Part shown: positions 2,484 through 50,083 of the stretch, piece after piece
How positions within the stretch are numbered: the first letter of the stretch is position 1
Layout of the letters: each line of letters begins with the position of its first letter
Origin: Paracoccaceae bacterium
Lineage (GTDB): Bacteria > Pseudomonadota > Alphaproteobacteria > MPNO01 > UBA830
Length of the DNA: 64,000 bases
Assembly: GCA_047638395.1 (NCBI GenBank)
Contig: JBLIMV010000017.1
Location: forward strand, 33,431-97,430
Reading direction: 5' to 3'
Made by a program: the position numbers and the translations under genes
Notes under the pieces: model-generated
Databases searched by the model: none
Told to the model about the DNA's origin: nothing
Seen by the model: only the letters and a program-made list of their open reading frames with translations

Positions 2484-3464
2484 TCAGAGGTTGATCCGGA
2501 AGAGGTCCATCGTATTGGTGCGGCCGATCTTGATGCGGTCGGCTTCGCTGATGCTGCAGGTATCGAACCAGTCCGCCGCATGATCGACGTTCTCGAACGG
2601 CCAGTCAGCGGAAAACAGTACCCGGTCGGCACCAATCTCCAGCATCGCGTCGATCAGTGTCTGAGTACGGAAATTGCCCGATGTGGTGATGTAAAAATTG
2701 TTCTGAAAATACTCGCCCAGCATTTTCTGTGCCGGATAGCCCCGCTCATCCCCGACCCATTTATTCCGGTTGTCGATCCGCCACATGCTGTAGGGAAGAC
2801 CTTCGCCCATATGGCCCAGAACGATCTGCAGGTTGGGATGTTCATCGAACAGACCCGACGCCATCAATCGGAGCGCATGCACCGCCGTCTCCTGGCCGAA
2901 CGCCCAGGTCGGCCCCAATAGCCAGGGATGGCCTTCATAAATCTGCGCCATGCTCGGCAGCGGGTTGCGCGGATGCAGATAGAACGGCACGTCCAGCTTT
3001 GCGACGACGTCCCAGAACGGACGGTATTGCGGCAGGTCATAATACAGAGCGGATTCTTCAACATCGGCCTGCGAAAAGCCGTTGACCAGCGCGCCGACGA
3101 AGCCGAGTTCGTTCACGCAGCGTTCCATTTCGGCACAGGCCATATCGACATCCTGCAGGGGCAGCGCCGCGAAACCGCGGAACCGACCCGGATTGCGCTG
3201 AACCCATTCGGCCAGCATGTCGTTGGATTTTCTCGCTACCTCATTCGCCCGCTGGCGATCCGGGATCGCCTGAACAGCCGGTGCGTTGAGGGACAGTATC
3301 ATCATTTCGACGCCGTTCTGATCCATCTCGTCGATCCGGCGGCCTTCGATATCCATCAGGCGGCCGGAGAGTTCCTCCCAGGTTTCCGGCGGCAGATAGC
3401 CGTTCGAATCCTGCAGCGTATCCTCGATGGCGTAATGTTCTTCGAGCGCGATCTTGCCTTGCAT
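2484..3464 (-). CDS. amidohydrolase-2 family metal-dependent decarboxylase/hydrolase (ACMSD / gamma-resorcylate decarboxylase-like)
   Basis: The N-terminus MQGKIALEEHYAIEDTL matches the conserved start of ACMSD/LigW/gamma-RSD type amidohydrolase_2 proteins. The 326-aa length fits, and His/Asp metal ligands are spread through the sequence. Confidence 0.7.
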   Translation of the reverse strand: MQGKIALEEHYAIEDTLQDSNGYLPPETWEELSGRLMDIEGRRIDEMDQNGVEMMILSLNAPAVQAIPDRQRANEVARKSNDMLAEWVQRNPGRFRGFAALPLQDVDMACAEMERCVNELGFVGALVNGFSQADVEESALYYDLPQYRPFWDVVAKLDVPFYLHPRNPLPSMAQIYEGHPWLLGPTWAFGQETAVHALRLMASGLFDEHPNLQIVLGHMGEGLPYSMWRIDNRNKWVGDERGYPAQKMLGEYFQNNFYITTSGNFRTQTLIDAMLEIGADRVLFSADWPFENVDHAADWFDTCSISEADRIKIGRTNTMDLFRINL

Positions 3465-3552
3465 GACGGTCTCCCCGTTGAGATTGGATATCCCCGCTAT
3501 TCAGACGAGGTTTGTTGACCCTGTTTCTAGATGGGCCTCGATATTATTTCAA

Positions 3553-3571
3553 TATGAAAATGTTTCATATA
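3553..3571. promoter_or_regulatory. perfect 8-bp inverted repeat ATATGAAA-ATG-TTTCATAT in AT-rich spacer upstream of the amidohydrolase gene
   Basis: This palindrome was read directly in the 3465-3575 intergenic spacer, about 90 bp upstream of the start at 3464. It is a candidate operator; no regulator gene lies adjacent. Confidence 0.25.
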
Positions 3572-3575
3572 AAAT

Positions 3576-4886
3576 TCAATGAGTGGCACAGGTCCGAAAC
3601 CCGGCGAAGATATCCTGCCGGTGCGGCGGAAAGTAATTCCGGTATTTCGCGTTGATATAGCGGCTCCGCGTCACCCAGGAACCGCCGCGCAAGACCTTGG
3701 TATCGCCGAATAGCGGCTCCGAATATTCCTTGTAATCGTCCGGCGCAAAACCGTCGAACGGGCCGAACGTATCTGCCGTCCATTCCCACACATTGCCGAT
3801 CAGCTGCCGGCAGCCCCAGGCGTTTTCACCCGCCGCATAGTCTGCCGTATCGGCGTAGCCCATTCCGAACCCGTCCATATTGGCCCGGACAGGTGTGATC
3901 GGGTCGTTACCCCAGGGATAGTCTGACTTTATCAGCCCGGCATTACCGTCGGGGCGCATCGAGGCCGCAAATTCCCATTCGGCCTCGCTTGGCAGGCGGC
4001 GGCCCGCCCATTGGCAATAGGCAGTCGCTTCATGCCAGTTCACATGAACAACCGGCGCGTCCGGCGCAAGGTCCCGCCATTTATCGAACAGACGCACCTG
4101 CCAGGCATCGGTATCGACTCGTTTCCAGTAGACCGGATGCAGCGCACCCGCTTCCCGGCGCCAGGCAAGACCGGTCTCGGACCAAAGCGCATCGTTCAAA
4201 TACCCGCCGTCTTCGACAAATTCGGCATATGCGCCACAGGTTACCGGCGCCCGCGCCATACGGAACGGTGCAACGATGACATCATGCGCCCATTTTTCAT
4301 TGTCGAAGACAAAGGCGTCTTCAGGTCGTGCACCAAGACGGAATGTCCCGCCGGGAATGTCCGCATCGCCTTCGAGCGCCCCCGTCACGGCAAGCCGTTG
4401 CGCCGTCGCCGCGCCATCTGGCCGAAAGACCGGGGTCGGATATCCAAGCGTCTGACGTGCCCACGTAAAGGCCTCGTCATGCATGTCTTCGTGGAAGGCG
4501 GTGAACTGATAGAGGTAACTATCGCGCTCACTCGCAGCGCCTTTGTCCAGGCGCTCGATCAGCGTGTCCAGCACCGTCGCCATATACTCTTTCATCTCGC
4601 CCAGCGGATATACCGGCAGGTCCCAACGCGTATCGTGGGCAATCGCGATTGAATCGTAGAGCGCGTCTCCCCGCTCCAGCAACGGCTGATGGCCATCTCC
4701 CTGACGCAGGATGAAAAATTCATAGAACCAGGCCACATGCCCTATTTCCCAGATCGTTGGATTGAGGATCGGCAGTTTCGGTCCGACGAGTTGGTCGTCA
4801 GTCAATCCCTCCAGCAGCTCCAGCGTACGTTGCCGGGCGCTTTGCAGGGTCGATACGAGCTGGTCGCTGGTTACTTGTGCGGTCAT
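3576..4886 (-). CDS. senA: EgtB/SenA-family sulfoxide (or selenoxide) synthase: N-terminal DinB_2-like domain + C-terminal FGE-sulfatase (SUMF1-like) domain
   Basis: The N-terminal HVAWFYEFF DinB_2-type motif and the C-terminal RGGSW..R..YR..F FGE-family motifs match EgtB at 436 aa. Genomic context (SenB-like GT, SelD, no egtD) favours the selenoneine synthase subtype. Sequence alone cannot separate EgtB from SenA. Confidence 0.55.
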   Translation of the reverse strand: MTAQVTSDQLVSTLQSARQRTLELLEGLTDDQLVGPKLPILNPTIWEIGHVAWFYEFFILRQGDGHQPLLERGDALYDSIAIAHDTRWDLPVYPLGEMKEYMATVLDTLIERLDKGAASERDSYLYQFTAFHEDMHDEAFTWARQTLGYPTPVFRPDGAATAQRLAVTGALEGDADIPGGTFRLGARPEDAFVFDNEKWAHDVIVAPFRMARAPVTCGAYAEFVEDGGYLNDALWSETGLAWRREAGALHPVYWKRVDTDAWQVRLFDKWRDLAPDAPVVHVNWHEATAYCQWAGRRLPSEAEWEFAASMRPDGNAGLIKSDYPWGNDPITPVRANMDGFGMGYADTADYAAGENAWGCRQLIGNVWEWTADTFGPFDGFAPDDYKEYSEPLFGDTKVLRGGSWVTRSRYINAKYRNYFPPHRQDIFAGFRTCATH

Positions 4887-4907
4887 GAATCTTCGTTACG
4901 TTGGACC

Positions 4908-5865
4908 CATGAAGATTAGCCTCGTCACCCCCGCAGGGAAACAGTCGCGCGCGGGAAATCGTACCACCGCCATCCGATGGGCCCGGATTCTGAGCGATAT
5001 CGGGCACCGCGTCGAAATTTCGGAAGACAGTATCGGCAAGGGCGCGGACATGATGATCGCCGTCCATGCCTGGCGATCGGCAAAATCGATCCGGGCATTT
5101 TCACAGCAACATCCGGACCGACCGCTCGTCGTGCTGCTGGCCGGGACGGATATTTACCACTTCCAGCACAGTCATCCGGCGGAGACACTGGAATCGATGG
5201 AACGGGCGACCCAGCTGGTCTGCCTGCATGACCTGGTCCACCGGGCCATCCCCCGCAAGTTCGACAAAAAACTGCGGGTCATCCACCAATCCTCACCGCC
5301 GCTGACATCCCCGCGTCAGCCGTCGAAACGCTGGTTCGAGGTATGCGTTGCCGGACATCTGCGCGCGGAAAAGGATTCGCTGCGCACCGCCTATGCCGCG
5401 CGTCTGGCACCGGCGGACTCAAATCTGCGGGTGGTCCATCTCGGCAAGGCACATGACGATTCATGGGCGCGCGATGCCCGCGCGGAAGTGGCACACAACC
5501 CCCGCTTTGTGTGGCGTGGCGAGGTACCGGGCTGGCAGGTTCGCCGACAGTTCGCCCGCAGCCACGCAATGGTGATCAGCTCGGTCATGGAAGGTGGCGC
5601 GAACATTGTGTCCGAAGCCATCGTTTGTGGCGTGCCGGTGATTGCATCGCGTATCGACGGCAATATCGGGCTGCTTGGCGCAGATTACGAAGGCTATTAT
5701 CCGGCAAAGGATGAAGCCGCGCTGGCGGCACTGCTGCTGCGTGCCGAAAAGGAGCCGGCCTTCCTGAAGACCCTGGCACGCCAGTGTCGGGCCAAAAAAT
5801 CTTTGTTCGCGCCGGCAAAAGAAAAAGCCGCGTGGAAAACACTATTGAAAGATATGGGAGTCTGA
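4908..5865 (+). CDS. senB: small GT-B glycosyltransferase, SenB-like (selenosugar synthase candidate)
   Basis: A GT4-like C-terminal motif, EGGANIVSEAIVCGVPVIASRIDGN, is present. At about 319 aa it is shorter than typical GT4 enzymes. It is divergently adjacent to the EgtB-like gene (22 bp apart) and close to SelD. The start was chosen at ATG 4908, which gives MKISLVTPAG. Confidence 0.55.
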
Positions 5866-5867
5866 CA

Positions 5868-6791
5868 ATGCGGATCGCAATGATGGGCAGCGGCGGTATC
5901 GGTGGTTATTTCGGTGGCCGGATGGCGGCGGCCGGGACCGATGTGAGCTTTATCGCCCGGGGCCGGCACCTGGCGGCAATGCAGGAAGCCGGCCTGCGGC
6001 TCGACAGCCGGGATATGGGCGATGTCACCATCAAACCGGTCAGCGCCACCGACAACCCTGCAGAAATCGGTCCGGTCGACTACCTGATCATCGGTGTGAA
6101 ACTCTGGGATACCGAAGATGTCGGAAAATCGATCCTGCCGATGCTTGGCCCCGACACCACCATCCTGTCGCTACAGAACGGCGTCGACTGCGACGATATT
6201 CTGGCGCCCATCGTCGGCCGGGAGCGGCTGATCAGCGGCGTCGCCTTCATCGCAAGCTCAATCTCGGAACCGGGCGTCATTCGCCATATCGGCACGATGC
6301 AGCGCATCGTGATGGGCGAACCGGACGGCAGCATTTCCCCGCGCCTGACGGCCCTGCAAGACATGATGGTCCAGGGCGGAATCACCGCCGAGACCAGCGA
6401 CGATATCCAGCGCACGCTGTGGGAGAAGTTCGTGTTTCTCGTAGGGCTGAGTTCAACCACCACGTTGATGCGCACCACGCTCGGCCCGATCCGCGAGGCC
6501 CCCGAAAGCCGGGAATTCCTGTTCGGTGTGATGCGCGAAGCGACGGCTGTCGGACGGGCCATCGGCATCGACCTGCCGGAAGATTTCGCCGATACCCGTC
6601 TAATTTTTGCAGATGGCCTGCCGGTCGATATGACATCGTCGATGCACCACGATTTCGAGGCCGGCAATAAGCTGGAGCTATCCTGGCTGGCAGGAACCAT
6701 CGTTCGGCTGGGCCGCGAGGCCGGCATTTCAACGCCCGTATGCCAGACGGTCTATGCGGCGCTGCTGCCGAAGGCCGGCGGGGCGGCCTGA
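5868..6791 (+). CDS. 2-dehydropantoate 2-reductase family (PanE/ApbA-like) NAD(P)H oxidoreductase
   Basis: The N-terminal MRIAMMGSGGIGGYFGG Rossmann motif is typical of ketopantoate reductases. A GGGAG ribosome-binding site lies upstream. The start is 3 nt after the senB-like stop, so the two are translationally coupled. Confidence 0.7.
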   Translation: MRIAMMGSGGIGGYFGGRMAAAGTDVSFIARGRHLAAMQEAGLRLDSRDMGDVTIKPVSATDNPAEIGPVDYLIIGVKLWDTEDVGKSILPMLGPDTTILSLQNGVDCDDILAPIVGRERLISGVAFIASSISEPGVIRHIGTMQRIVMGEPDGSISPRLTALQDMMVQGGITAETSDDIQRTLWEKFVFLVGLSSTTTLMRTTLGPIREAPESREFLFGVMREATAVGRAIGIDLPEDFADTRLIFADGLPVDMTSSMHHDFEAGNKLELSWLAGTIVRLGREAGISTPVCQTVYAALLPKAGGAA

Positions 6792-9061
6792 CTAAACCCT
6801 GACCGTGATCGGCTCCAACCGGTCCGACTGTTCTTTTACCTCACCGACGATCATCGTCCGCGTATAGCCGAGTTCGATCAGCCTGGCGACACAGGCATCC
6901 GCGCGGTCGGCGGGCACGCTGGCAAGCAGGCCGCCCGCGGTCTGCGGATCGAAAATCAGCGGATATCGGGGATCTTTGCCGGCTTCTTCCAGATTGGCGA
7001 CCGCGCGGCGCAGGCGCACGTTCTGCGGCTGCAGCGATGAGACGATCCCAGCGCGCACGGTATCTTCGGCACCGTCCATCATCGGCACGGCATCAAGCAC
7101 AAGCTCGACATCGACCTCGGATGCCCGCACCATTTCCACCAGATGGCCGAGCAGGCCGAACCCGGTGATATCAGTCGCCGCCCGGCTGCCATATTCAACC
7201 AGGCACTGCGCACCGAGGCGGTTCGACATCACCATATGATCGAGCGCAGCGGCGATCCACCGGCCCTTGGCCTTGTGGCGCATGTCGGCCGCGAACAATG
7301 TGCCGGTCCCGATCGGCTTGGTGACAATCAGCTTGTCGCCGGGCTTAAGGCCGCCCTTGCGCATGATCTTGTCCCTGTCGATTAGCCCGTTGACCGAAAA
7401 ACCAAGGCTGAGCTCGGGGCCTTCGCTGGTATGGCCGCCGACAAGGCTGCAATTGGTATCGTTCAGGATCTCCATCGCGCCGGACATCATCTGGGTCAGC
7501 GTATCCTCGACCTTGGATTCGATGCCAAACGGCACCGTGGCGACAGCAAGCGCGGTCTGCGGATCGGCGCCCATGGCGAAGATATCGCCGAGGCTGTGAT
7601 TGGCCGCGATTTTGCCGAACACGTACGGATCATCGATCATCGAGCGGAAATAGTCGACCGTGTGCACCATCACTTTGCCCGGCGGCACTTCGACCACAGC
7701 GGCATCGTCCGGCTCGTGCAGGCCGATCAGCACATCGTCGCGCGGCGCGGGCGTCAGTGTATTGAGGGCCCGCGACAACACGCTGGCCCCAACCTTGGCG
7801 CCGCAGCCGCCGCAGCGCATGGCAATTGCCGAGATTTCCTTGACCACATCGGCACTCGCCAGCCCGGCGGGCAGATCGGTTTTTTCTTCCTCGTCCATGT
7901 CGGGGAGGTCGTTGAACTTGTCCATAAAGCGGCGGTCGATCCAGTCTTTCCAGCGCCACAACGCCTCGCCCTTGATGGACCAGCCACCGCGCGACGCGAC
8001 GGCGAATTTGTCGCCGGTCGAAATCAGTCCGAGGAAATTCTTTTGCGGCCGGAAGGGGCGCTGCGTCTGCCCCAGAAGCGCCCGGCGCAGGTTTCGTTCC
8101 AGCGGCTTACCCTGACGCACTGCGAACACGCCCGACTTGGGCCGCGGATGATTGACCATCGCGGCAACGTCACCCGCAGCATAAACGTCTGGATGAGACG
8201 TCGATTGCAACGTATCGCCGACCTTGATAAAGCCGCCGTCATCCACATCGAAACCGGCTTCGCTTGGCCAGGACGGCGCGCCCGCGGCGGTTACCCACAG
8301 GATTTCATCGGCGGCAATCTCTTCACCACCGCCCGTCTTCAACAGCCCCGGCATAATCTCGGTGACGGGCTGTCCGAGATGCAGGTTCACGCCGCGGCGC
8401 TGAAGCACTTCCATAAAGGTCCGGCGCGCCCGGGCGTTATGGGTCGGCAGGATCTCCGCCGTATTGCTGAACAAATGGAATTCAATGTTGTCCGCCGCAT
8501 TGCCAGCAGCTTCACGCAGTTCGCTCAGCCGGTGCTGAATTGCCAGCAGAATTTCCACGCCACCTGCCCCGGCACCGACGACGGCAATCCGCAGCGGACC
8601 TTCATGCGCCATGGCCCGGACACTCAGCGCTTCCCACCGGTCAAGAAAATTATTGATCGGTTTGACCGGAACCACATTGCCCGTCGCACCGGGCACACCC
8701 GATGTATTTGGGGTCGAACCCGTATTGATCGATACCAGTTCGAACGGCACGGGCGGCCGGTCATCACAGATCACGCGCCGTTCCCGCAGGTCGAGCCCCG
8801 TGACGGTCGAATGATAGAAGCGCGCATTGGCAAACCGTGCCAACGCACCGAGATCGATATGTGCTTCGTCATAAGTGTAATGACCGGCAACGTATCCAGG
8901 CAGCATCCCCGAATAGGGCGTGTGCGCATCACGGCAGATCAACGTGAGGCGAACACCGGGCACGGGTTTCATACCGAAACGTTTGAGCACCGCGACATGG
9001 CTGTGTCCGCCGCCAATCAGCACCAGGTCTTTGACAATCGGGGTATCGGATTTTTGCATAA
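6792..9061 (-). CDS. selD: bifunctional FAD-dependent pyridine nucleotide-disulfide oxidoreductase (NADH dehydrogenase-like) / selenide, water dikinase SelD
   Basis: The N-terminal VLIGGGHSHVAV dinucleotide-binding motif marks the oxidoreductase half. The C-terminal half begins MRCGGCGAKVGASVL, the SelD Cys-type glycine-rich active-site loop, and continues with AIR-synthase-related PurM-like folds. The start was placed at the internal ATG (MQKSDTPIVKDLVLIGGG), 4 nt after the permease stop. Confidence 0.8.
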
Positions 9062-9063
9062 GA

Positions 9064-10551
9064 CTATCGTTGTTCCAAAGTTGTCTGAAGGCGCAGCCGG
9101 GACCGGATGGACCGGGAAATTGCATCGACGCAGATATTGAGCATCGCCGTAATCAGGATCAATAACAGCGCCCGGTCGAACCGCAGGTCGGCGAACGCAC
9201 TGTCTACATAGAATCCCAATGTCGCAATGCCGAGAATACCGAGAATGGCCGTTTCGCGGAGGATGACCTCCCAACGGTAGAACAGCAATGCCAGCATTGG
9301 CCGGTAGACACGGGGAAGCACCTCGTAGAAATACCTGTTCACGCCCTTCACGGCATCAATCCGGAGTTGAACTGTTTCAGTGTAGCGCCCGATAAGATGT
9401 CCGATAATCGCCGCATTGTGCAGGCTGAGAGCGACAATCGCCGGCAACATCGAGGGGCCCCATAGATTGAGCAGAACAAAGGCAAGGATATATTCCGGCG
9501 TTGACCGGACAATCACCAGAAACGTATGCCCGCCGGTACGCGCCGCGCGACCCAGCAAAAGCGGCGAAATCAGCGGAAAAAAGATCAGCGTGAGAAAACC
9601 GGTCGCAACCAGCGCAATCATGGTGAGCTGGATTGTCGCCACCATTCCGGGCCAGGCCTGATCAAACAGCATCATCGCGAGCCAGTCGCCAAAGGCTGCG
9701 AGCGATCCATCACCACCGACACGCAGCGGATACGGCACGATATCGACCGTAAAGAACCGCGAGACATTCGACCACGAGAACGCAACACCCCAGGGCAGGA
9801 TTGCGGCTGCCGCCACCAGGTAAACCGGCAGTAGCGGCTTTTTCATCCAGATCCGCATGGTCGCGATCACCAGATAGAACAGGATCAGCAGCGCGGAGAC
9901 CTCGGAGTAATAACCTTCCTTGAACGCCGTTTCGAGATGAAACCCAAGCGTCGGCAGCCCGATAAAACCCAACACCGCCGATGACCGAAGACCGCATTCG
10001 AGCCGGTACATCGAATAACTTCGAAAATGAGCCCAGGCATCCGGCAGACGCACGAACAAAAAAGTCGATGCCCTGCCCGCGCCAACCGGCACCGCACTCA
10101 ACGGTCGCTGATCGGCTTCTTCAAGAATTTCCGCATAGACCTTGGCAATGATCCCGGCATAGGGGATGGCGATCGCCAGCACACCGGTTAGCGGCGACAA
10201 CCCAAACATCTGTAGGAAAATCAGTGCCCAGAACAATTCATGGATCGAGCGAATAAAAGCACAGCCGACCCGGACGGTCCGGCTATGAAATATGAGCGCG
10301 AGGCCGAATCCAAAGATGTTGGCCAGTGCCACGCCAAGCAGTGCAAACGCAAGCGTATAGGCAAGCGCCAGGCCCAGGCTGTTGGTTGCATAGAAATCCG
10401 GTGTGACGATCCCTTTGAGCAGCAGCCCGAATTCTCGCCACGGGTCGGCCGTCGAGATCGCGATGTCGGCAAATATCCAGCAGACGATCGCGACGAACAG
10501 AAATCCCGTGGTCGTACGCGCGAGCGGAGAGGGTTCGCGGCGCGCGATCAT
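9064..10551 (-). CDS. ABC transporter permease, PhnE-like, fused double transmembrane domain
   Basis: This 495-aa polytopic membrane protein carries two PhnE-type permease repeats. Its start overlaps the ATPase gene and its stop lies 4 nt before the SelD-fusion start. Confidence 0.75.
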   Translation of the reverse strand: MIARREPSPLARTTTGFLFVAIVCWIFADIAISTADPWREFGLLLKGIVTPDFYATNSLGLALAYTLAFALLGVALANIFGFGLALIFHSRTVRVGCAFIRSIHELFWALIFLQMFGLSPLTGVLAIAIPYAGIIAKVYAEILEEADQRPLSAVPVGAGRASTFLFVRLPDAWAHFRSYSMYRLECGLRSSAVLGFIGLPTLGFHLETAFKEGYYSEVSALLILFYLVIATMRIWMKKPLLPVYLVAAAAILPWGVAFSWSNVSRFFTVDIVPYPLRVGGDGSLAAFGDWLAMMLFDQAWPGMVATIQLTMIALVATGFLTLIFFPLISPLLLGRAARTGGHTFLVIVRSTPEYILAFVLLNLWGPSMLPAIVALSLHNAAIIGHLIGRYTETVQLRIDAVKGVNRYFYEVLPRVYRPMLALLFYRWEVILRETAILGILGIATLGFYVDSAFADLRFDRALLLILITAMLNICVDAISRSIRSRLRLQTTLEQR

Positions 10552-11213
10552 TCCACGCCGTTAAGATACAGATTGTCGAGATCGCCGGGCGTCATTCCGG
10601 CAGATTCCTGATCCATCACGATCTGCCCGGCCTTGACGCCGATCAACCGGTCGGCAAACTCAATCGCCAGCGCACGGTCGTGCATCGCGAGAATAACGGT
10701 TTGTTTCTGCGCATTCATGGTTTCGAGAATTTCACGCGCCTGATGTTCATCGACCGACGATACCGGCTCGTCAGCGACGATGATGTCTCCGGTATGGAAC
10801 AGGGCGCGGGCAAGCGCGGTGCGCTGATACTGACCGCCCGATAGCTGGCCAACGCCCGAAAACATCTTGTCTTCCAGCCGCAGTGGAATGAGAATCTCTC
10901 GAACCTCCTCCACATCATCACGCGCCGGCAACACAAGATTGCGCAGGTTGCGCCAGACTGACCGCTGGTGAAGCCGCCCCATATAGACGTTATGAAAGAC
11001 TGTCAGCGCCTGAACGAGCGCAGAATCCTGAGGCATCAGAGCCGCTTTTGCCCCAAGACGCTCATAAAAAAGACGGAGCAGGGTGGATTTCCCTGCTCCG
11101 CTTTCTCCGATGAGCGCAATTCGCTCACCAGGTTCGATACTCAGCGTGAGCCCGCGAAGAATCTCTTTGCCGTTATAGCCGGCCGATTCGTCTTTGAGCT
11201 CAAGCAGGGCCAT
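10548..11213 (-). CDS. ABC transporter ATP-binding protein, PhnC-like
   Basis: The Walker A GESGAGKST, the LSGGQ signature LSGGQYQRTALARAL, and Walker B with D-loop IIVADEPVSSVD are all present. Confidence 0.8.
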   Translation of the reverse strand: MALLELKDESAGYNGKEILRGLTLSIEPGERIALIGESGAGKSTLLRLFYERLGAKAALMPQDSALVQALTVFHNVYMGRLHQRSVWRNLRNLVLPARDDVEEVREILIPLRLEDKMFSGVGQLSGGQYQRTALARALFHTGDIIVADEPVSSVDEHQAREILETMNAQKQTVILAMHDRALAIEFADRLIGVKAGQIVMDQESAGMTPGDLDNLYLNGVE

Positions 11214-12085
11214 CAGTCGATCAGGCCGATCGTCTTTGCCGTATCCTTAATCGGCGCATAATCAGAATTCTTGGCCGGAATGAAGGAGGCTCTCGGAAAT
11301 GAACTCAACAAATCCGGATCGTTCATCGATATCAGTGCGGATTGAACTTTATCGGCGAAACCCGGACCAAAGGTCTTGTCGACATCGCCCCGAATGGACC
11401 AGTTGTAGTCCGGGTAGCCCGGGGTTTTCCAGATAACACGGACCTTTTTGGGATCAATCGTTCCGTTTTTGATCCCCTTTTTCCACACCTTGAAATTTGT
11501 TGCCCCTACTTCGTAAGCACCGGACTGAACCAACGCTACCGTCCTCGAGTGGTTTCCACTAAAGCCGACACGGCTGAAAACCTGCTGGGGCACTTTTCCG
11601 AAAGCCTTTCGGATATGAAATTCGGGCATCAGGCGCCCGGAAGTTGAGCCCTTGGAACCGAACGTGAAGGTTTTACCGGCGATCGCTTTCGGAAAGTCCT
11701 TCGACAAGGTAAGTCCGGTACTGGCGTTGGCGATAAAATAGGTCTCGAAATTCGGATCAGCCTTACCCTGCGCAATTGCCTTTGATCCCTCCACAAGTCC
11801 CCTTGCCCGGACCCCCGACAAACCACCAAACCACGCCAACTGGACCTGATTGTTACGGAAGGCCGTAACCGCCGCTGAGTAGGATTTAACGGGAACATAT
11901 TCGACTTTTGTTGAGAGTGTTTTTGAAAGATATTTCGCCACCTTATCAAAGCGCTTACGTAGCTGGCTTTCGTCCTGATCCGGAATTGCGGTAAAGACGA
12001 ATCCTTCGGCAGCATTTGCCTGCGTTGCCGGCAGGACCGGCAGCGCGATTACCGCAGCAGCGGCAAGAACAGTAAGGAATCTCAT
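11213..12085 (-). CDS. PhnD/PtxB-like periplasmic substrate-binding protein; putative selenate/selenite-binding
   Basis: A signal peptide (MRFLTVLAAAAVIALPVLPATQANA) is followed by a PhnD-fold pattern, FVFTAIPDQD..VEYVPVKSYSAAVTAF..QVQLAWFG. The gene sits in an operon with selD, like the family annotated as putative selenate ABC binding protein. Confidence 0.65.
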   Translation of the reverse strand: MRFLTVLAAAAVIALPVLPATQANAAEGFVFTAIPDQDESQLRKRFDKVAKYLSKTLSTKVEYVPVKSYSAAVTAFRNNQVQLAWFGGLSGVRARGLVEGSKAIAQGKADPNFETYFIANASTGLTLSKDFPKAIAGKTFTFGSKGSTSGRLMPEFHIRKAFGKVPQQVFSRVGFSGNHSRTVALVQSGAYEVGATNFKVWKKGIKNGTIDPKKVRVIWKTPGYPDYNWSIRGDVDKTFGPGFADKVQSALISMNDPDLLSSFPRASFIPAKNSDYAPIKDTAKTIGLID

Positions 12086-12311
12086 ATAACGTCTCCTGTT
12101 GAATGCGCGGGTGCTCCAAGCCTCTCCCGAAGCAAGCTGACACCCACGATAATAATGAAATGACGGGACAAAACACCCCGTTGCAGGGGCTCTTGTCTAA
12201 ATAGCTGTGTAAAGATTACGTGACCAGCGTAAAGCGGGATTTGTTATGCTAAAATTCGGCCTGAAAAAGACGCCTGAAGGCCATATCAGGCCTGCGTCAG
12301 ATCGGTAATGG

Positions 12312-13451
12312 CTAACGACCGGCCGCTTCACGCAACACACCAAGGGTCTGCCGCGCCGTTTCTTCCCAGGTAAAGGTCCGCGCCCGGCGCGCGGCTTTCC
12401 TGCCCAATTCCACACGTAGCTTCGGTTCGACCAGCAACGTGGCAATGCGGGCGGCTATCTCTTTGGCATTGTCAGGATCAAACATCAGTCCGGCATCGCC
12501 GATGACTTCGGGCATTGCCGCCGCGTTTGATGTCGCAATCGGTGCGCCGTGGGCCATTGCCTCGAGCAGCGGATTGCCGAATGTTTCTACCGACGACGGG
12601 AAAACGAATAACTGGCAATCCCGGTACAGCGCATCCAGCTCCGACGTCTCGACATGGCCGACAAACTTCACCGTGTCTTCCAGCCCAAGATCGCGGACCA
12701 GACCGCGGAGAGTTTCCGCATAGTGACTGTCGATCTCACGCCCCACGACCGTCAGCGTCAGATCCGAGCGGCTCTGCCGCAGAATAGACATGGCATGCAG
12801 GAGCGTATGGTAGTTCTTCTGAATATATATATCCGACACCGCCAGCAGGTTGGTGCCCTGTACTTCGTTGTCCTCGCGGGGTGCGACGACAGGTGCGGTC
12901 CCGTGATAGACGACACTTACCTTTTTCCCGCGAACGCCTTTCAGCCCGAATGTCAGCAAGCCTGCGGCGTAATTCGACACCGCGATGGCTCGCCGCGCGG
13001 TCAGCAGTGATGCAAGTGTCGCCCCTGACAGCATGAACCAGTACGTCAACGGCTTCAGCCGCCGGGCCAGCCGTATGACCGAAGTCGCATTTCGTAACAA
13101 TAAAATATGATTCCGGGCAAAGACCGGCCCAAAATTGGCGGGCGAGAAAAGCACGTCCACGGACAGCCTTCGGGCGATCCCGGGCAGTTTGAACTGTTCC
13201 CAGAAAAGAGTTGGGAAAAAACCGGGTCGGTAATCACACGTCACGACGTCGATCCCATCGGGAACCGGGTCAAACAAAGGGAGCTGGTCTTTGTGTAATA
13301 TCAGATGCAGGCTGACACCGGGTTCGGCGGCCAGGAGTGGCAGCATCTGGCGCAGATAGGTTACACCGCCGCCGGTCTTGGCGTGGGACGCATTAATCGC
13401 AATGCGAAACGGTAGCGGGGCCTGACCCGAGAGGGATGCTGCGGTGGACAT
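12312..13451 (-). CDS. glycosyltransferase family 4 (GT-B)
   Basis: The GT4 signature E..FGNPLLEAMAHGAPIATS lies near the C-terminus. Length is 379 aa. Confidence 0.7.
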   Translation of the reverse strand: MSTAASLSGQAPLPFRIAINASHAKTGGGVTYLRQMLPLLAAEPGVSLHLILHKDQLPLFDPVPDGIDVVTCDYRPGFFPTLFWEQFKLPGIARRLSVDVLFSPANFGPVFARNHILLLRNATSVIRLARRLKPLTYWFMLSGATLASLLTARRAIAVSNYAAGLLTFGLKGVRGKKVSVVYHGTAPVVAPREDNEVQGTNLLAVSDIYIQKNYHTLLHAMSILRQSRSDLTLTVVGREIDSHYAETLRGLVRDLGLEDTVKFVGHVETSELDALYRDCQLFVFPSSVETFGNPLLEAMAHGAPIATSNAAAMPEVIGDAGLMFDPDNAKEIAARIATLLVEPKLRVELGRKAARRARTFTWEETARQTLGVLREAAGR

Positions 13452-13586
13452 ATATAATCCGAAATCTACTTTGCACGCCGGTATACACTAACATGCGGGC
13501 GAGTTAGCAAGAAAGCGGGCCTGAACCCGGCCCGATGCCGATTTCCTTCATATGCAACGTTTTTCGTTGACGGACAGATACCCGGG

Positions 13587-14972
13587 CTAGAGCCCGCCCG
13601 GTTCCAGCGTCGTGGTATATTTATCAAGGTCGGCAGATGGCACAGGAACACGCTCATACCGCCCGGCAAACCCGAATGGCAGCGACGCATCAATACCAAC
13701 TTTGGTCCGCACGCCTTTGTCCGAGATTGACACATATTCATGCCCGCGCGCGCCGGGCATCGTAATCAGCCCCGTCGACGCATCCCAGCGGGTCGCAAGG
13801 GCCCATTCGACGTCGTTCCAGTCATGGATGTTGATATCGTCGTCCACCACGATCACGAGATCGAGATCCTTCAATGCCGCGATCGCCGCAAAGATAGCGT
13901 TGCGCTGATAGCCTTCATCGGCGGCGCTCCGCTTGTTGACCGAAATCAGCAGATGGAACCGGTAGAGACCGCCCGGTGTAAGGGCGACATCCGTCACGCA
14001 GGGTGCGGATGCCTTAACCGCCTTCAGGATAGCGCCTTCAAGGACATGCTTGCGCAAGATGGGCGCTTCCTTGGTCATGATCACATGCCAGATCGGGTCT
14101 TCGCGGTGATAGATACAGTTGATCGTCGTCAAGGGTGACGGGCTGACATCCGAATACAACCCGACGAATTCGAGGAACGGACCCTCTTCCATTTCCACAT
14201 CGGGTGAAATGGTCCCTTCCATGATGATTTCGGCGTCCGCGGGCACCTGAAGCGGAATTGTTTTACAGTCGATCAGTTCCAGCGGTTTGCGCGATAGCCC
14301 GGATGCGACGTCGTATTCGTCCATGTCGCGGGGCAACTGCGCGCCCATCATGCCGGCCGCATATTGCAGGCCGACATCAGCGCCAATGACGATCGCAATC
14401 GGCAGTTCTTCGCCTTTTTCCTTCGCCCGCTCCCACAGCGCGCGCAGATCGCGGCCGAGGTCGAGCTGGATCAACAGCTTGTTGCCCTCGACATGCATGA
14501 AGCGGTGATAGGACGCATTGTTCACGCCGGTATCGGGATCCTTCGCGATCACCACGCCACCGGAAATATAACGCCCGCCATCGTTCGGCGCATAACGCGG
14601 CAGCGGCAGATATTCGAGCAGGTCTGGATTGTTGCGATAGACCGCCTGAACCGGGCCTTCATCGACATGCTTGGGCGGAATCGGGTTCGCAAGTCCCTCG
14701 CCGATATAATCGCGCAGACCAGACACATCATGTTCATAAATTGCCAACACGTTTTCCTCGCAACCAAGGAAATTACCGACGACCCGTGTGTCGTAGCCAC
14801 GCACGTTCTTGAACAGCATCGCCCGCTCTGTCTGCTTGAACAGCACACCGGTCATTTCAAGGTCGGTGTCGACTTCATCTGCGACTTTTAGCAACAGATT
14901 TGCCGCGTCGAGTCGCCCCAGCGCCGCACGAAAACTGAGATCGGGAATATGGGGTTCTTTTTTATCGTTCAC
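13587..14972 (-). CDS. UbiD-family (prFMN-dependent) decarboxylase
   Basis: The 461-aa protein shows UbiD-like N-terminal organisation (LSFRAALGRL...GCEENVLA) and a conserved middle region. Its stop lies 35 nt downstream of the gltD stop on the same strand. Confidence 0.7.
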   Translation of the reverse strand: MNDKKEPHIPDLSFRAALGRLDAANLLLKVADEVDTDLEMTGVLFKQTERAMLFKNVRGYDTRVVGNFLGCEENVLAIYEHDVSGLRDYIGEGLANPIPPKHVDEGPVQAVYRNNPDLLEYLPLPRYAPNDGGRYISGGVVIAKDPDTGVNNASYHRFMHVEGNKLLIQLDLGRDLRALWERAKEKGEELPIAIVIGADVGLQYAAGMMGAQLPRDMDEYDVASGLSRKPLELIDCKTIPLQVPADAEIIMEGTISPDVEMEEGPFLEFVGLYSDVSPSPLTTINCIYHREDPIWHVIMTKEAPILRKHVLEGAILKAVKASAPCVTDVALTPGGLYRFHLLISVNKRSAADEGYQRNAIFAAIAALKDLDLVIVVDDDINIHDWNDVEWALATRWDASTGLITMPGARGHEYVSISDKGVRTKVGIDASLPFGFAGRYERVPVPSADLDKYTTTLEPGGL

Positions 14973-15007
14973 TGTACAGCTCCTCGTAACGGGAAATGGC
15001 GAGCCGC

Positions 15008-16429
15008 CTAGCGCGGCAGCTCGGTCGTCCCCATAAGATATTTATCGACGGCATGGGCTGCCTGACGCCCCTCACGGATCGCCCAGACGACAAGAGATTG
15101 TCCACGCCGCATATCGCCAGCCGTGAAGATTTTCTCGCGGCTCGTTTCATACGCGACCGTATCCGCCTTGACGTTCCCGCGGCCATCGAGCTCAACACCA
15201 AGCTGTTCGAGCATGCCTTCCGCCATCGGATGGACAAAGCCCATGGCCAGCAGAACGAGGTCTGCCTTCAATTCGAATTCACCCCCGTCGACCGGCTGGA
15301 ACTTCTCGTCCACACGCTGACAGTTGATGTGCGTGACGCGGCCTTCTTGGCCGCCCATGCTATTGGTCGTCACGGAGAAATCGCGTTCCGCACCCTCTGC
15401 CTGGCTGGAAGAGGTCCGCATCTTCAGTGGCCAGTGCGGCCAGGTAAGGCCTTTGTTTTCCTTCTCCGGCGGCTCTGGCATGATTTCGAGCTGAGTGACC
15501 GAAAGGGCCCCCTGGCGGATAGAAGTACCGATACAGTCCGACCCCGTATCGCCGCCACCGATCACGACAACATGTTTTTCAGTCGCGACTATCGGTTCGA
15601 CATCACCGTCCAGATTGCTACCGGCAACGCGGCGGTTCTGCTGTGGCAAAAATTCCATCGCGAAATGGACACCCTCCAGATCACGCCCATCAACCGGTAG
15701 ATCACGCGGCTTCTCGGACCCACCGGTCAGCAGAACCGCATCATGGTTCGCCTCCAGGTCGGCCGCACTCAGATCGACGCCCACATGCACACCGCAATGA
15801 AGGGTCACGCCCTCGGCGATCATCTGTTCCATGCGGCGGTCGATCAGATGCTTTTCCATCTTGAAATCGGGAATGCCGAGCCGCAAAAGACCGCCGGGGG
15901 TTTCGTTCTTTTCATAGAGATGAACGTCATGGCCGACGCGGGCGAGCTGCTGCGCTGCCGCCATACCGGCGGGGCCTGATCCGACGACAGCAATTTTCTT
16001 GCCGGTCTTCACATCGGGAACCTGCGGCGTGATCCAGCCCTCTTCCCACGCCCGGTCAACGATGGCACATTCGATGGTTTTGATGGTCACCGGTGCATCG
16101 TCGATATTCAGCGTGCAGGCCGCTTCGCACGGCGCGGGGCAGACCCGGCCCGTAAACTCCGGGAAGTTGTTGGTCGAGTGAAGGTTGTGCGACGCCTGCT
16201 CCCAGTCGGACTGGTAGACAAGGTCGTTCCAATCGGGAATCTGGTTATTCACCGGACAGCCGCTATGGCAGAACGGAATACCGCAATCCATGCACCGCGC
16301 CGCCTGCCGTTCGAGGTCACGCTCCTCGAGCGGGATGACAAATTCCTTGTAGTTCCGAATGCGATCGCTGGCCGACTTATAAGTACGGTCGTGCCGTTCA
16401 ATCTCGATGAAGCCTGTTACCTTGCCCAT
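15008..16429 (-). CDS. gltD: glutamate synthase small (beta) subunit, NADPH-dependent
   Basis: The N-terminus [12 protein letters not shown]...[10 protein letters not shown] carries the [4Fe-4S] cluster cysteines. Two dinucleotide-binding motifs are present, [12 protein letters not shown] and [10 protein letters not shown]. Confidence 0.9.
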
Positions 16430-19400
16430 CAGCTTCTCCTCATCCCGATATTCATCTCGCCGGTCTGTTCGACCTGCAATTCCTGCAACGCACGGCGGTA
16501 TTCGACCGGCATCACTTTGACGAATTTGGACAGGTAATCGTCCCAGTTATCCAGAATATCCTGGGCACGGCTCGACGCGGTGTAGTGCGCATGGTTCTGG
16601 ATAAGCTGACGCAAACGTTCGGCATCAAAGCGGGTCATATCGGATTTCACATCAACCAGCCCGTGCGATTCGATATCGGAGCGATGAAGTTTCTCCATCA
16701 CTTCCTCTTCGTCTTCGACGGGTTCCAGATCGACCATCGACAGATTACAGCGTCGCTCGAAATCGCCGGATTCGTCCAGCACATAGGCAATCCCGCCGGA
16801 CATACCCGCGGCAAAGTTGCGCCCGGTTTCACCCAGCACGACGACAATCCCGCCGGTCATGTATTCACACCCATGATCACCCGCGCCTTCGACAACCGCG
16901 ATCGCCCCGGAATTACGCACGGCGAACCGTTCGCCCGCGATGCCCCGGAAATAGCATTCGCCATTTACCGCGCCGTACAGGACGGTATTGCCGACGATCA
17001 TGCTCTCGTTCGGGTTGATCCCGCTAACAGGATCGGGGCGAACGATCAGTTTGCCGCCCGACAGACCCTTGCCAACATAGTCGTTGGCTTCGCCGATGAG
17101 CTCGAGGGTAACGCCCTTTGTAACCCAGGCACCGAAGCTTTGTCCGGCGACGCCTTTCAGCTTCAACCAGATCGTGTCGTCCGGCAGTCCGGCGTGACCG
17201 TATTTCAGCGCCAATTGCCCTGACAACATCGTGCCGGCAGATCGGTCGGTATTGCCGATCGGGAATTCGGCCTGCACAGCTGTGCCGTTCTCAAACGCCG
17301 GGGCCGCCACCTCGATGAACTTCCGGTCGAGGATATCCTTGATCGGGTGGTTCTGTTTAGTCGTATGATGGACATCGACGCTATCGGCTTCAACTGGCCG
17401 GAAAAAGAGCTTGCTGAAATCAAGCCCGTTGGCTTTCCAGTGATCGATCGCCTTCGCGGTATCAAGGACATCTGTCTGGCCGATCATGTCGTTGATCGTG
17501 CGGAAGCCCATTTCAGCCATCAGCTCGCGCAGTTCTTCAGCCACGTAGAAAAAGAAATTGACGACGTGTTCCGGCTCCCCGGTGAACTTCTTTCGAAGTT
17601 CGGGGTCCTGCGTCGCGATCCCGACCGGACAGGTATTGAGATGGCATTTACGCATCATGATGCAGCCCGATGCGATCAGCGGTGCTGTCGCAAACCCGAA
17701 TTCATCGGCGCCAAGCAGCGCGCCCACCGCAACATCGCGGCCGGTCCGTAGCCCGCCATCCACTTGGACGGCGATGCGACCGCGCAGGTCGTTCATCACC
17801 AGGGTCTGCTGGGTTTCGGCAAGACCAATTTCCCAGGGCGAACCCGCATGTTTGATCGAGGTCAGCGGAGAGGCCCCGGTGCCGCCCTCAAACCCCGAAA
17901 TCGTCACATGATCGGCACGGGCCTTGGAAACCCCGGCGGCCACCGTGCCGACGCCGATTTCGGAAACCAGCTTCACGCTGATATCCGCCGTCGGCGTCAC
18001 GTTCTTCAGATCGAAGATCAGCTGCGCCAGATCCTCGATCGAGTAGATATCATGATGCGGCGGCGGCGAGATCAAGCCGACGCCGGCCGTCGAATGCCGG
18101 ACCTTCGCGATGACTGCATCCACCTTGTGGCCCGGCAGCTGTCCGCCTTCGCCCGGCTTCGCGCCCTGGGCCATTTTGATCTGAATCATGTCGGCATTTA
18201 CGAGGTATTCGGTCGTCACACCAAACCGGCCAGACGCGACCTGCTTGATCGCGGAACGCATCGAATCGCCGTTTTCCATCGGCACAAACCGGTCTGACTC
18301 TTCACCACCTTCACCGGTATTGGATTTGCCGCCGATACGGTTCATCGCAATAGCGAGATTCGTGTGGGCTTCACGGCTGATCGACCCATACGACATTGCC
18401 CCGGTGGCAAAGCGTTTGACGATATCTTCCGCCGCCTCGACCTCGTCCAGCGGGACCGGATTGCGGCCGGTTTCCTCGGCCGGCTTCAGACGGAACAGAC
18501 CGCGCAGCGTCATCAGCTGTTCGCTCTGTTCGTTGATTCCTGCCGCATAGGACCGATACTTATCAGGCAACTGGCCACGCACTGCGTGCTGCAGATCGGC
18601 CACCGCCTCCGGCGACCAGGAATGCTTTTCCCCCCGGATGCGAAACGCGTATTCGCCACCGACGTCCAACGCCTTTTCATAAATCGGATTGTTCCCGAAG
18701 GCATCCGAATGACGCATCAACGTCTCGGCCGCAATTTCCTGAAGGCCGACGCCTTCAATCGCCGTATGCGTGCCCGTGAAATACCTTTCTACGAAGGACG
18801 ACTGCAGTCCGACCGCATCGAATATCTGGGCGCCACAATAGGATTGGTAAGTCGAAATGCCCATCTTCGACATGACCTTCAGCAACCCTTTGTCGATACC
18901 TTTTATGAAGCGCTTGTTGATCTCGTCGTGGCTCAACTCGCCATCGATCTTTTCACGCAGGTCTTCCAGCGTCTCGAAAGCGAGCCACGGATTGATCGCC
19001 TCTGCACCAAAACCGGCAAGGGTCGCAAAATGATGAACTTCGCGCGCTTCACCGGTTTCCACGACCAGACCAACCGACGTCCGAAGACCCTTGCGGATCA
19101 GATGATGGTGGACGGCAGACGTCGCCAGTAATGACGGTATGGCCACCCGGTCCGACGCCATCAGACGATCAGACAGAATGATAATGTTATGGCCCTGACC
19201 GACGCTGGTTTCAGCGCGCTCACAAAGATTGTCGATCGCCTCTTCCATGTACTCGGCGCCACGCTGCACATTGAACGTGATATCGAGCGTGATGGTCAGA
19301 AACTGATTGTCAGCGATATCGCCAATCGCGCGAATTTTCTCCAGCCCCTCGTTGGAAATGATCGGCTGGCGGACTTCAAGCCGCTTCAGGCTGGACGTGC

Positions 19401-21126
19401 CTTCGAGATCGAGCAGGTTGGGCCTCGGCCCGATAAACGATACCAGCGACATCACAATCTCTTCGCGGATCGGGTCAATCGGCGGATTTGTGACCTGGGC
19501 GAAGAGTTGTTTGAAATATGACGCAAGTGTTTTGGGTCGCGACGACAATGCCGATAGCGGGGTGTCCGTACCCATAGCGCCGGTCGCTTCCTGGCCAGTC
19601 TGGGCCATCGGCGACATAAGGAATTTGATATCTTCCTCGGAATACCCGAATGCCTGCTGGCGCTCCAGTAGCGGAATCGCAGAAGCGGTCGGAGCACGGC
19701 CGGTATCTGGCAGGTCACGGAGCTGAATCTGTGTGTGTGCCAGCCATTCCTTGTACGGGTGGCTATTGGCAAGTTCGGCTTTCAAATCTTCGTCGGAGAC
19801 AATTTTGCCCTGCTCCAGATCGATCAGCAGCATCTTGCCCGGCTGAAGCCGCCATTTGCGGACGATGTTTTCTTCGGGAATATCGAGCACGCCCATCTCG
19901 GACGCGAGCAGCACGAAGCCGTCCTTGGTTTCCAGATAGCGCGCAGGACGCAGGCCGTTCCGGTCGAGCGTCGCACCGACGACCTTGCCGTCGGTAAAAG
20001 CGATCGCGGCGGGGCCGTCCCATGGCTCCATCAGGGCCGCGTTGTATTCGTAGAACGCCCGAGATGTTTCATCCATCAGCGGGTTGCCGGCCCAGGCTTC
20101 CGGGATCAGCATCATCATGGCGTGGGGCAGCGAATAACCGCCCTGATAGAGCAGTTCCAGCGCGTTATCGAAACACGCTGAATCCGACTGCCCCTCGTAG
20201 GAAATCGGCCAGAGTTTCTGCATGTCGTCGCCGAATGTCGGAGACGACATTGTCGCCTGACGCGCCGCCATCCAGTTCGAGTTGCCGCGCAGTGTATTGA
20301 TCTCACCGTTATGGCAGATCATCCGGTAGGGATGCGCCAGCGGCCAGGACGGGAAAGTGTTGGTCGAGAAACGCTGATGCACCAGCGCCACCGCGGATAC
20401 CACACGCTCGTCCTGCAGGTCCCTGTAATATTTGGCCACGCCATCAGCAAGAACAAGTCCCTTATAGACGATGGTGCGGGACGAACAGGACACCGGATAG
20501 TACCCGACAGCCGCATCCGGATGGTTGGCCCGGACATGATTCGAGGCGACCTTGCGGGCCACATACAGCTTGCGTTCGAATGTGTCGTCATCGGCAATGT
20601 TGCTGCCCCGCGCGATGAACACCTGGCGGTGCACCGGCTCGGTCGGTTTGACACTCTCGCCGAGAACGGAGGAATCCACCGGCACATCACGCCAGCCAAT
20701 GATTTTCAGGCCTTCCTGGACCGTCGACATTTCATAAGCAGCTTCGATGGTCTTACGATGATCTGCATCACGCGGCATAAACAAATGCGCAACGCCGTAA
20801 TGATTGGGTTCGGGCAGGTCGAAGCCAAGCGCCTTCATCTCGGCGGCAAAAAATTCGTGCGGCAACTGAATCAGGATACCTGCGCCATCGCCGGCCTTGG
20901 GGTCGGCGCCAACGGCCCCACGGTGTTCGAGATTGCAGAGAATTTTCAACCCGTCTTCGACAATCTTCCGGCTCCGCTCATTGCGGATCGAACAGATCAT
21001 CCCGATGCCACAGGCATCATGCTCATTCGCAGCGTTATAAAGGCCCTGGTCAGGCTTAAGACCCGCATAGAGCGGGCGCGGCGCTACGTTCGCCGTCTCG
21101 CCTGCACGCCCCTTAGCGGGGTTCAT
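16429..21126 (-). CDS. gltB: glutamate synthase large (alpha) subunit
   Basis: The N-terminal amidotransferase domain (CGIGMI active-site Cys after the propeptide), FMN-binding domain and C-terminal GXGXG domain are all recognisable. The start was chosen at the internal ATG (MNPAKG), 17 codons inside the longest ORF. Confidence 0.9.
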
Positions 21127-21603
21127 AATCTTTTTCTGTCGCAATGTCGGCGCCCTTCGAAAAATGCACTCCACCACATGTGTTCCATAGACCGATCAGG
21201 ACCAGCCTCAGAACCTGTTCCACTGTTCTTGCCGCACCAAATCGGCGTGCGAAGATCGGCATATGACCTGCGGTGGGGTTATCAATGTACAGCGATACGC
21301 AATCCGGGGCTCTATTTCAATAGTTTGCCGTTTTGAATTCGCACCGGCATGATTCTGAAATAACCTCAAACGGCGCATAAATTGTGCCTTTTCCAGAACA
21401 GCTATAGTCAAACTGCACTTTGATAGGCACCTAGTAATTCCAACTAGCGAATTAATAGAATCTTCGATACAAATATAGATGTCATGTCGTCATAGGCGTG
21501 TAGGGCTGGGCGCGGCACTTCAGAACAAAATGATTGGATTTTCCGCGGTAGAACAATAAGTCTGCAGAAATGGTGCAGGGTAAGTAGTAAATTGGGGGGC
21601 AAG

Positions 21604-49992: not shown

Positions 49993-50083
49993 CTGGCGGA
50001 GAGGGGGAGATTCGAACTCCCGAGACGCTTGCACGCCCAATAGTTTTCGAGACTACCGCATTCAACCACTCTGCCACCTCTCC
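49993..50083 (-). tRNA. tRNA-Ser (anticodon CGA), 91 nt with long variable arm and encoded CCA
   Basis: The reverse complement reads GGAGAGGTGGCAGAGTGGTTGAATGC...TCTCGAAAACTAT...GGGAGTTCGAATCTCCCCCTCTCCGCCA. Acceptor, D, anticodon (loop CTCGAAA) and T arms fold canonically. The long extra arm is typical of Ser. Confidence 0.85.

Follow-up and report, generated by a model that had tools for sequence, protein, structure and literature searches.

The region described here lies in contig JBLIMV010000017.1 of a Paracoccaceae bacterium (assembly GCA_047638395.1), from which a stretch of 64,000 nucleotides (nt), hereafter the window, was analysed. Between positions 6792 and 12085 it contains four tightly packed genes, all on the minus strand, which code in order of transcription for a substrate-binding protein (SBP; 11213–12085, 290 amino acids (aa)), the ATPase of an ATP-binding cassette (ABC) transporter (10548–11213, 221 aa), a PhnE-type permease (9064–10551, 495 aa) and a fusion of an oxidoreductase with SelD (6792–9059, 755 aa). 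The listing of open reading frames (ORFs) and a direct reading of the junctions confirm the coordinates, strand and close packing given in the initial annotation of this sequence, together with two of its three junctions: the ATPase and permease genes overlap by 4 nt (ATGA, 10548–10551), and the permease stop codon (9066–9064) is separated from the ATG of the fusion (9059–9057) by a 4-nt gap, as TAG-tctt-ATG. The third junction, given there as an ATGA at 11213, is really TGATG, with one nucleotide in common between the SBP stop (11215–11213) and the ATPase start (11213–11211), which is a minor correction. The mechanical ORF places the start of the fusion at the ATG at 9125 (777 aa), a form ruled out by the length of its homologues (751–755 aa) and by the match to TIGR03169, which in the 755-aa form starts at residue 11. 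The fusion starts 6–76 nt past the permease in 15 related loci, and this favours the start at 9059.

The operon adjoins two genes of selenoneine synthesis that were overlooked in the initial annotation. These are senA (3576–4886, minus strand), coding for an EgtB-like selenoneine synthase (NF041186, 495.8 bits for a cutoff of 420), and senB (4909–5865, plus strand), coding for a selenosugar synthase (TIGR04348, 405.4 bits for a cutoff of 300). SenA, SenB and SelD all score above their curated cutoffs and are found together in less than 6 kb (3576–9059). Since senA and senB adjoin the operon, the fused SelD represents SenC in a selenoneine (sen) cluster. According to Kayrouz et al. 2022, selenide is turned into selenophosphate by SenC and this into a selenosugar by SenB, and SenA couples the selenosugar to hercynine; a gene for a “putative selenate transporter” was also reported by these authors near many sen clusters. 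Compared with the senA-senB-senC arrangement they described, the SenC of the window is the NDH-2-fused form with a CxxC motif and appears co-transcribed with the transporter rather than with senA and senB, and a gene for a PanE-like reductase is inserted after senB. A role in selenocysteine or selenouridine synthesis was rejected for the window, as neither mnmH, a second selD nor a tRNA-Sec gene was found in its 64 kb. Taken as a whole, the locus is best explained if the four genes form one operon that is the selenium-supply arm of the sen cluster and takes up selenite, a reading which we consider fairly probable.

Related loci were collected on the basis of SBP homologues with at least 59% identity, scanning one genome per species. 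The resulting 80 loci come from Alpha- and Gammaproteobacteria, SAR324, Nitrospinaceae, Poribacteria, Entotheonella, Holophagae and Arcobacteraceae, and are mostly marine. The trio of SBP, ATPase and permease is present in 78 of them, and a dedicated selenium gene lies within 10 kb in 46 at strict thresholds, or in 48 after relaxed inspection; when only the 54 loci flanked on each side by 9 kb or more are considered, the count is 33–34. For a single-copy gene and a 20-kb span in a genome of 3–5 Mb, we estimate that chance would give less than one such case in 80. Clustering of the neighbouring ORFs returned the Ndh::SelD fusion (28 loci), SenB (23 loci), SenA (16 loci), the tRNA 2-selenouridine synthase MnmH (15 loci; NF008751, 505 bits), unfused canonical SelD (9–11 loci) and EgtD (5 loci), with the identities of MnmH, unfused SelD and EgtD confirmed with NCBIfam. 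No recurrent neighbours other than selenium genes came out of this clustering of the 80 loci, and the loci that have no selenium neighbour are flanked by heterogeneous genes that do not recur. Neither ptxD nor other phosphorus-utilisation genes are among the conserved neighbours of the 80 loci, a result of the clustering and not of a dedicated search with a ptxD model.

The selenium genes are arranged around the transporter in several ways. The order SBP-ATPase-permease-fusion seen in the window is found in 15 loci, with gaps of 6–76 nt. Two five-gene operons contain mnmH, namely mnmH-SBP-ATPase-permease-Ndh::SelD and selD-mnmH-SBP-ATPase-permease (L032, L053, L062 and L070, and also L034, L040, L063, L066, L074, L076 and L077), and both tie the transporter to the synthesis of selenouridine in tRNA. 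In other loci a block of fused selD and senB lies upstream of the SBP gene (for example L028, L030, L038 and L061), or senA and senB are adjacent to the transporter with no selD (for example L016 and L037). That the layouts differ speaks for selection acting repeatedly and against a single accident passed on by descent. The link between a phosphonate-type importer and selenophosphate synthesis pointed out in the initial annotation is thus real and recurrent, being found in 48 of the 80 loci, in at least four layouts and with two unrelated pathways. Because the need for selenophosphate is all that the selenoneine and selenouridine pathways have in common, this pattern of linkage argues strongly that the transporter works in the supply of selenium. 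In seven loci from Marinobacter and its relatives (L028, L030, L038, L043, L061, L067 and L080), the fused SelD and SenB are found upstream with no SenA within 10 kb, and these loci may have a pathway that ends at the selenosugar or uses another acceptor.

The SBP carries a Sec signal peptide (ending in ...QANA, followed by AE) and belongs to PF12974 according to a profile search. It scores 375.9 bits on the NCBIfam model TIGR04553, “putative selenate ABC transporter substrate-binding protein” (cutoff 250), and stays below the cutoff of the PhnD equivalog TIGR03431 (128 vs 261 bits). The name of TIGR04553 is a “hypoth_equivalog” label and not the outcome of an experiment. The closest structures in the PDB are those of the PhnD1 proteins of marine picocyanobacteria, namely 7S6G (E 1e-65), which is PhnD1 of Synechococcus MITS9220 with bound phosphate, and 5LQ5 (E 2e-56), which with 5LQ8 represents PhnD1 of Prochlorococcus MIT9301 with phosphite and methylphosphonate. 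The identity between the window SBP and the picocyanobacterial PhnD1 proteins is 40–44%, and the latter are themselves above the TIGR04553 cutoff, with 297 bits for MIT9301 and 334 bits for MITS9220; PhnD1 of Prochlorococcus already carries the TIGR04553 naming at NCBI. The pocket of the window SBP is formed by I34, D36, Y69, F113, S147, T148, S149, H179, N197, D226 and Y227, all 11 of which are the same as in Prochlorococcus PhnD (I11, D13, Y46, F90, S126, T127, S128, H158, N176, D205 and Y206, respectively) and are essentially invariant across the 80 loci and 240 database homologues. A difference is seen at a second-shell position, which is G146 in the window SBP and N or S in the picocyanobacterial PhnD1. 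The full set of phosphite-binding residues is therefore kept, with 11 of 11 matching a protein (Prochlorococcus PhnD1) that binds phosphite at 51–120 nM. The initial annotation assigned the importer to a selenium oxyanion rather than to phosphonate and proposed a comparison of pocket residues as a check. The recurrent selenium linkage supports a selenium role, but the comparison cannot discriminate between the substrates, because the pocket fully matches that of phosphite-binding PhnD1.

Other proteins of the same fold are more distant. PtxB, HtxB and E. coli PhnD share with the window SBP the PF12974 fold, the S-T-S motif, the His and the capping Tyr, and PtxB has Y, Q, S and L at the positions of F113, D226, N197 and I34, respectively. 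Ps_PtxB, a genuine phosphite binder included as a control, scores 162.5 bits on TIGR04553 and is thus under the cutoff of 250, and E. coli PhnD is a weak match to the window SBP (E 1.5e-11). AioX (arsenite) and ArrX (arsenate) are found as distant PDB homologues with very low similarity (E around 3e-4). By analogy, they show that the PhnD/PtxB scaffold has a precedent for metalloid oxyanions, although both are partners of sensor or respiratory systems, unlike a nutrient importer. It was also observed that the genes of the operon differ in their similarity to those of the two closest relatives. Compared with L003, identity is 98% for the SelD domain, 90% for the N-terminal domain of the fusion, 88% for the permease, 86% for the ATPase and only 73% for the SBP, while compared with L001 the SBP is 84% identical and the remaining genes 69–88%. 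At the level of sequence, this mosaic suggests recombination or faster evolution at the SBP gene.

The ATPase is PhnC-like (PF00005, ABC_tran) and has no C-terminal regulatory domain. Its motifs are intact (Walker A GESGAGKS, LSGGQ, Walker B IIVADE and H178 of the H-loop), and it scores 155 bits on TIGR02315, under the cutoff of 266. The permease is an internal duplication of the PhnE unit, with halves that are 30% identical (E 1e-12) and a score of 218 bits on TIGR01097 (PhnE) over two stretches. PhnE1 of Prochlorococcus is likewise a fused double PhnE, of 497 aa. The two operons differ in what follows the permease, which is tesA in the PhnD1 operon and, 4 nt downstream and within the sen cluster, Ndh::SelD in the window.

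The fusion protein combines Pyr_redox_2 with AIRS/AIRS_C. Its N-terminal domain (residues 1–400, 7860–9059, minus strand), assigned from TIGR03169 and PDB matches, scores 501 bits on TIGR03169 (“Nterm_to_SelD”, cutoff 310), and its C-terminal selenide, water dikinase domain (6792–7829, minus strand) scores 304 bits on the selD model TIGR00476 (cutoff 125) and matches E. coli SelD (3U0O) with an E value of 1.5e-47. Membership in TIGR04369 (“fusion_not_SelD”) was ruled out, the score of 462 bits being under the cutoff of 700. The glycine-rich loop of SelD reads C416GGC419GAK422, as aligned to GCGCK of E. coli, with K422 equivalent to E. coli K20 and the CxxC motif (C416-G-G-C419) coded by positions 7803–7814 of the minus strand. 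Conservation was measured over 29 fusions of 43–94% identity, in all of which C416 and C419 are found; they are the sole invariant cysteines of the fusion, with C723 present in 28 of the 29. The N-terminal domain has as invariants the motifs GGGHxH, TPYSGMLPG, GAGAGG (the second Rossmann motif) and GD, and no invariant cysteine was found in it across the 29 fusions. Residues 16–21 (nt 8997–9014) read GGGHSH in place of the canonical GxGxxG, with both His invariant in the 29 fusions, which is an unusual variant specific to this family.

The structure closest to the N-terminal domain is that of NDH-2 (4NWZ, E 5.9e-23, residues 12–380), followed by YjlD and FSP1. The fusion has two Rossmann domains in common with NDH-2; the alignment ends around residue 380 (residue 385 of the 405 of the NDH-2 chain), and residues 381–410 form an acidic linker to SelD that replaces the C-terminal membrane anchor of NDH-2. 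The domain had initially been described as a pyridine-nucleotide-disulfide oxidoreductase, and it turns out to be NDH-2-like and no ordinary disulfide reductase; the conventional mechanism of such reductases was rejected for it, as it has no invariant cysteine. Fusions of this type (COG1252::COG0709) were described by Zhang et al. 2008, whose proposal was that SelD receives a selenium compound reduced by the NADH-oxidoreductase part. The CxxC motif is a hallmark of Ndh-SelD fusions and is otherwise rare, and the fusions are abundant in marine oxic metagenome samples (PMC2398784). The protein of the window is typical of them in its domain order, in the CxxC of the SelD loop and in its marine distribution. 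No biochemical test of the reductase function of Ndh-SelD was found in the open-access literature that we searched, and such an absence is not proof.

From these elements a route for selenium can be proposed. The periplasmic SBP would capture a small selenium oxyanion, most likely selenite or hydrogen-selenite, which the fused PhnE2 permease and the ATPase would import, and selenium would be reduced to the level of selenide in the cytoplasm. The SelD domain (SenC) would then convert selenide to selenophosphate with ATP, SenB would use selenophosphate for the selenosugar, and SenA would join the selenosugar to hercynine to give selenoneine. The NDH-2-like flavin domain, which probably uses NAD(P)H, could reduce selenium held on the CxxC loop (for example as a selenotrisulfide or perselenide), so that toxic, oxygen-labile selenide would never be released. 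A two-electron reduction of CxxC-held selenium mediated by the flavin would be the most economical mechanism. In this scheme we infer the species that is transported, the direction in which the flavin domain works, its substrate, and the channelling between the domains.

The preference for selenite follows from the shape of the pocket. According to Bisson et al., a pocket of the PhnD1 type offers three oxygen sites and its Tyr cap penalises a fourth heavy atom. One oxygen of the ligand is expected to be protonated, because an Asp carboxylate contacts the ligand. Selenite is a pyramidal XO3 ion with a lone pair where phosphite has an H, a pKa2 near 8 and an O...O spacing close to that of phosphite, and selenate is tetrahedral and fully deprotonated. 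The Asp in the pocket should repel selenate, by the logic that applies to phosphate- versus sulfate-binding proteins. We thus infer that selenite fits this pocket and selenate does not, which speaks for selenite and against the “selenate” in the family name.

The role of PhnD1 in picocyanobacteria has been called paradoxical by the authors who studied it. The PhnD1-C1-E1 transporter is present in 97 of 97 picocyanobacterial genomes, and its SBP has dissociation constants (Kd) of 0.05–4 µM for phosphite, 7–180 µM for phosphate and 17–109 µM for methylphosphonate, phosphate being bound 10–3000-fold worse than phosphite. Shah et al. described the affinity for phosphite as “fortuitous”: their strains did not grow on phosphite or methylphosphonate, and the PhnD1 operon was not induced under phosphorus starvation. 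Tentatively, and with somewhat less than even confidence, we propose that the whole TIGR04553 family, PhnD1-C1-E1 included, is the long-sought dedicated high-affinity importer of selenite in bacteria. The nanomolar affinity of PhnD1 for phosphite would then be a by-product, as HPO3(2-) mimics the pyramidal SeO3(2-)/HSeO3(-), and its poor affinity for phosphate would be a selectivity filter for sub-nanomolar selenite amid a large excess of phosphate. For the cyanobacteria, the tie to selenium that can be drawn from sequence consists of family membership and pocket identity.

Several observations weigh against a selenite importer feeding a reducing SelD fusion. Around 40% of the related loci have no selenium gene within 10 kb, and in Prochlorococcus (one complete genome, L081) the phnD1 operon is not beside selD, its downstream neighbour being tesA. 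Proteins of the same family with 40–44% identity to the window SBP do bind phosphite, phosphate and methylphosphonate, and Se-O bonds exceed P-O bonds in length by about 0.2 Å. Selenium is not mentioned in either PhnD1 paper or their supplements, and the selenium oxyanions were absent from the ligand screens. The open-access literature that we searched holds no experimental characterisation of the transporter family with selenium compounds, an absence which is not proof. On the side of the pathway, no egtD for the supply of hercynine was found in the 64-kb window by tblastn, and this gene may lie elsewhere in the genome. An AlphaFold2 model of the full fusion, built on a 28-sequence alignment of homologues with 74–94% identity to the window protein, gave no usable picture of how the domains are placed (mean predicted local distance difference test (pLDDT) of 57.6, predicted template modelling score (pTM) of 0.46, with SelD mostly under 50). 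Lastly, the reductase domain is not obligatory, because the same transporter occurs with unfused SelD; it is an optional refinement and not a requirement for processing the imported substrate.

It could therefore be asked whether the importer is simply a transporter of reduced phosphorus or phosphate, as measured in vitro for PhnD1, with selenium neighbours that have no bearing on its substrate. The identity of the 11 pocket residues, the measured Kd values for phosphite and phosphate, the crystal structure with bound phosphate and the position of the Prochlorococcus operon away from selD all agree with this. Against it stand the linkage to SelD, MnmH, SenA or SenB in 48 of the 80 loci and in several independent layouts, as well as the lack of any phosphorus-utilisation gene as conserved neighbour in the clustering. 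Ps_PtxB, which does bind phosphite as its genuine ligand, fails TIGR04553 and differs at four pocket positions, and the fortuitous affinity, the lack of growth on phosphite or methylphosphonate and the lack of induction by phosphorus starvation reported for PhnD1 point in the same direction. A Kd for phosphate of 7–180 µM is moreover orders of magnitude above the phosphate concentration of the oligotrophic ocean. We regard a phosphorus substrate as unlikely on these grounds. Import of selenate (SeO4 2-), to be reduced in the cell to the selenide used by SelD, would be in line with the name of the NCBIfam family and with the label used by Kayrouz et al. Selenate is also a major dissolved selenium species in oxic water, which speaks for it. 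Against it, a pocket with an Asp in contact with the ligand and a tight Tyr cap disfavours XO4 over XO3, as seen from the 10–3000-fold weaker binding of phosphate, and by the principle known from sulfate- and phosphate-binding proteins the Asp would be expected to repel fully deprotonated selenate. No gene for selenate reduction or sulfate activation is among the conserved neighbours, and the family name is a label of the “hypoth_equivalog” type only. Selenate as the substrate thus appears very unlikely to us.

A different question concerns the NDH-2-like domain, which could serve, in an oxic cell, to maintain the two CxxC thiols of SelD in the reduced state, or link SelD to the quinone pool or the membrane, instead of reducing imported selenium. 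The closest structures being the quinone-reducing NDH-2 and FSP1, the lack of a conserved cysteine in the domain, the occurrence of the transporter with unfused SelD in 10–11 loci and the enrichment of the fusions in marine oxic samples could all be accounted for in this way. The segment that would anchor the protein in the membrane is however replaced by the acidic linker, as the NDH-2 alignment ends around residue 380. That the fusion and the rare CxxC occur strictly together fits both this role and the reduction of CxxC-held selenium proposed above, and does not separate them. We find such an upkeep or quinone-linked role doubtful, and retain reduction of imported selenium as the preferred reading for the domain.

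The immediate surroundings of the operon have some particularities. The SBP gene is preceded by an AGGAG Shine-Dalgarno sequence 7 nt 5' of its ATG, and a terminator-like hairpin with a T-run (12163–12190, minus strand) lies between it and the upstream gene for a GT4 glycosyltransferase. The hairpin is a consensus match only and is only suggestive of the 5' boundary of the operon, the 10 terminator-like matches in the region being not clearly above the shuffle expectation of 6.2 ± 2.5. A scan for sigma-70 promoters found none 5' of the SBP gene on the strand of the operon, and an Rfam scan of positions 3000–13000 with E values up to 1 gave no match, and thus no known riboswitch or leader. On the other side, senA and senB are divergent, with only 22 nt (4887–4908) separating their start codons, and therefore both promoters must sit inside the neighbouring coding sequences. 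The gene for the PanE/ApbA-like NADPH reductase (5868–6791, plus strand; TIGR00745, 234 bits for a cutoff of 141) begins 2 nt past the senB stop and converges on the fusion gene, its stop codon (6789–6791) abutting that of the fusion (6792–6794) with no intergenic base. Only L001 and L003, the two closest relatives, have a reductase of this kind in the corresponding place. Upstream of the operon and on the same strand (12312–16429 and 16429–21177) are genes for the GT4 glycosyltransferase, a decarboxylase of the UbiD family and the glutamate synthase small subunit; the 1582-aa ORF that comes next probably codes for the large subunit. These neighbours do not recur beside the transporter elsewhere, apart from the GT4 gene, which L003 also has. 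The sole tRNA gene of the window is a tRNA-Ser(CGA) at 49994–50083.

The interpretation given in the initial annotation largely corresponds to existing annotation and published hypotheses, namely the name of TIGR04553, the suggestion of Kayrouz et al. and that of Zhang et al. 2008. What is connected here is a database prediction, a natural-product pathway and the crystal structures of PhnD1, a protein with an unexplained role; in the literature that we searched, the PhnD1 and selenium lines of work are not joined. Recent papers state that no dedicated selenium transporter is yet known. The operon of the window is a compact example of the best bioinformatic candidate for this missing bacterial transporter, most likely for selenite, in which importer and selenium-activating enzyme are physically coupled, next to a pathway for a selenium natural product. 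If PhnD1 does bind selenite, a selenium transporter would be identified, one of the core genes of the most abundant phototrophs in the sea would be reassigned, and the “selenate” label that is spreading through genome annotation would be corrected.

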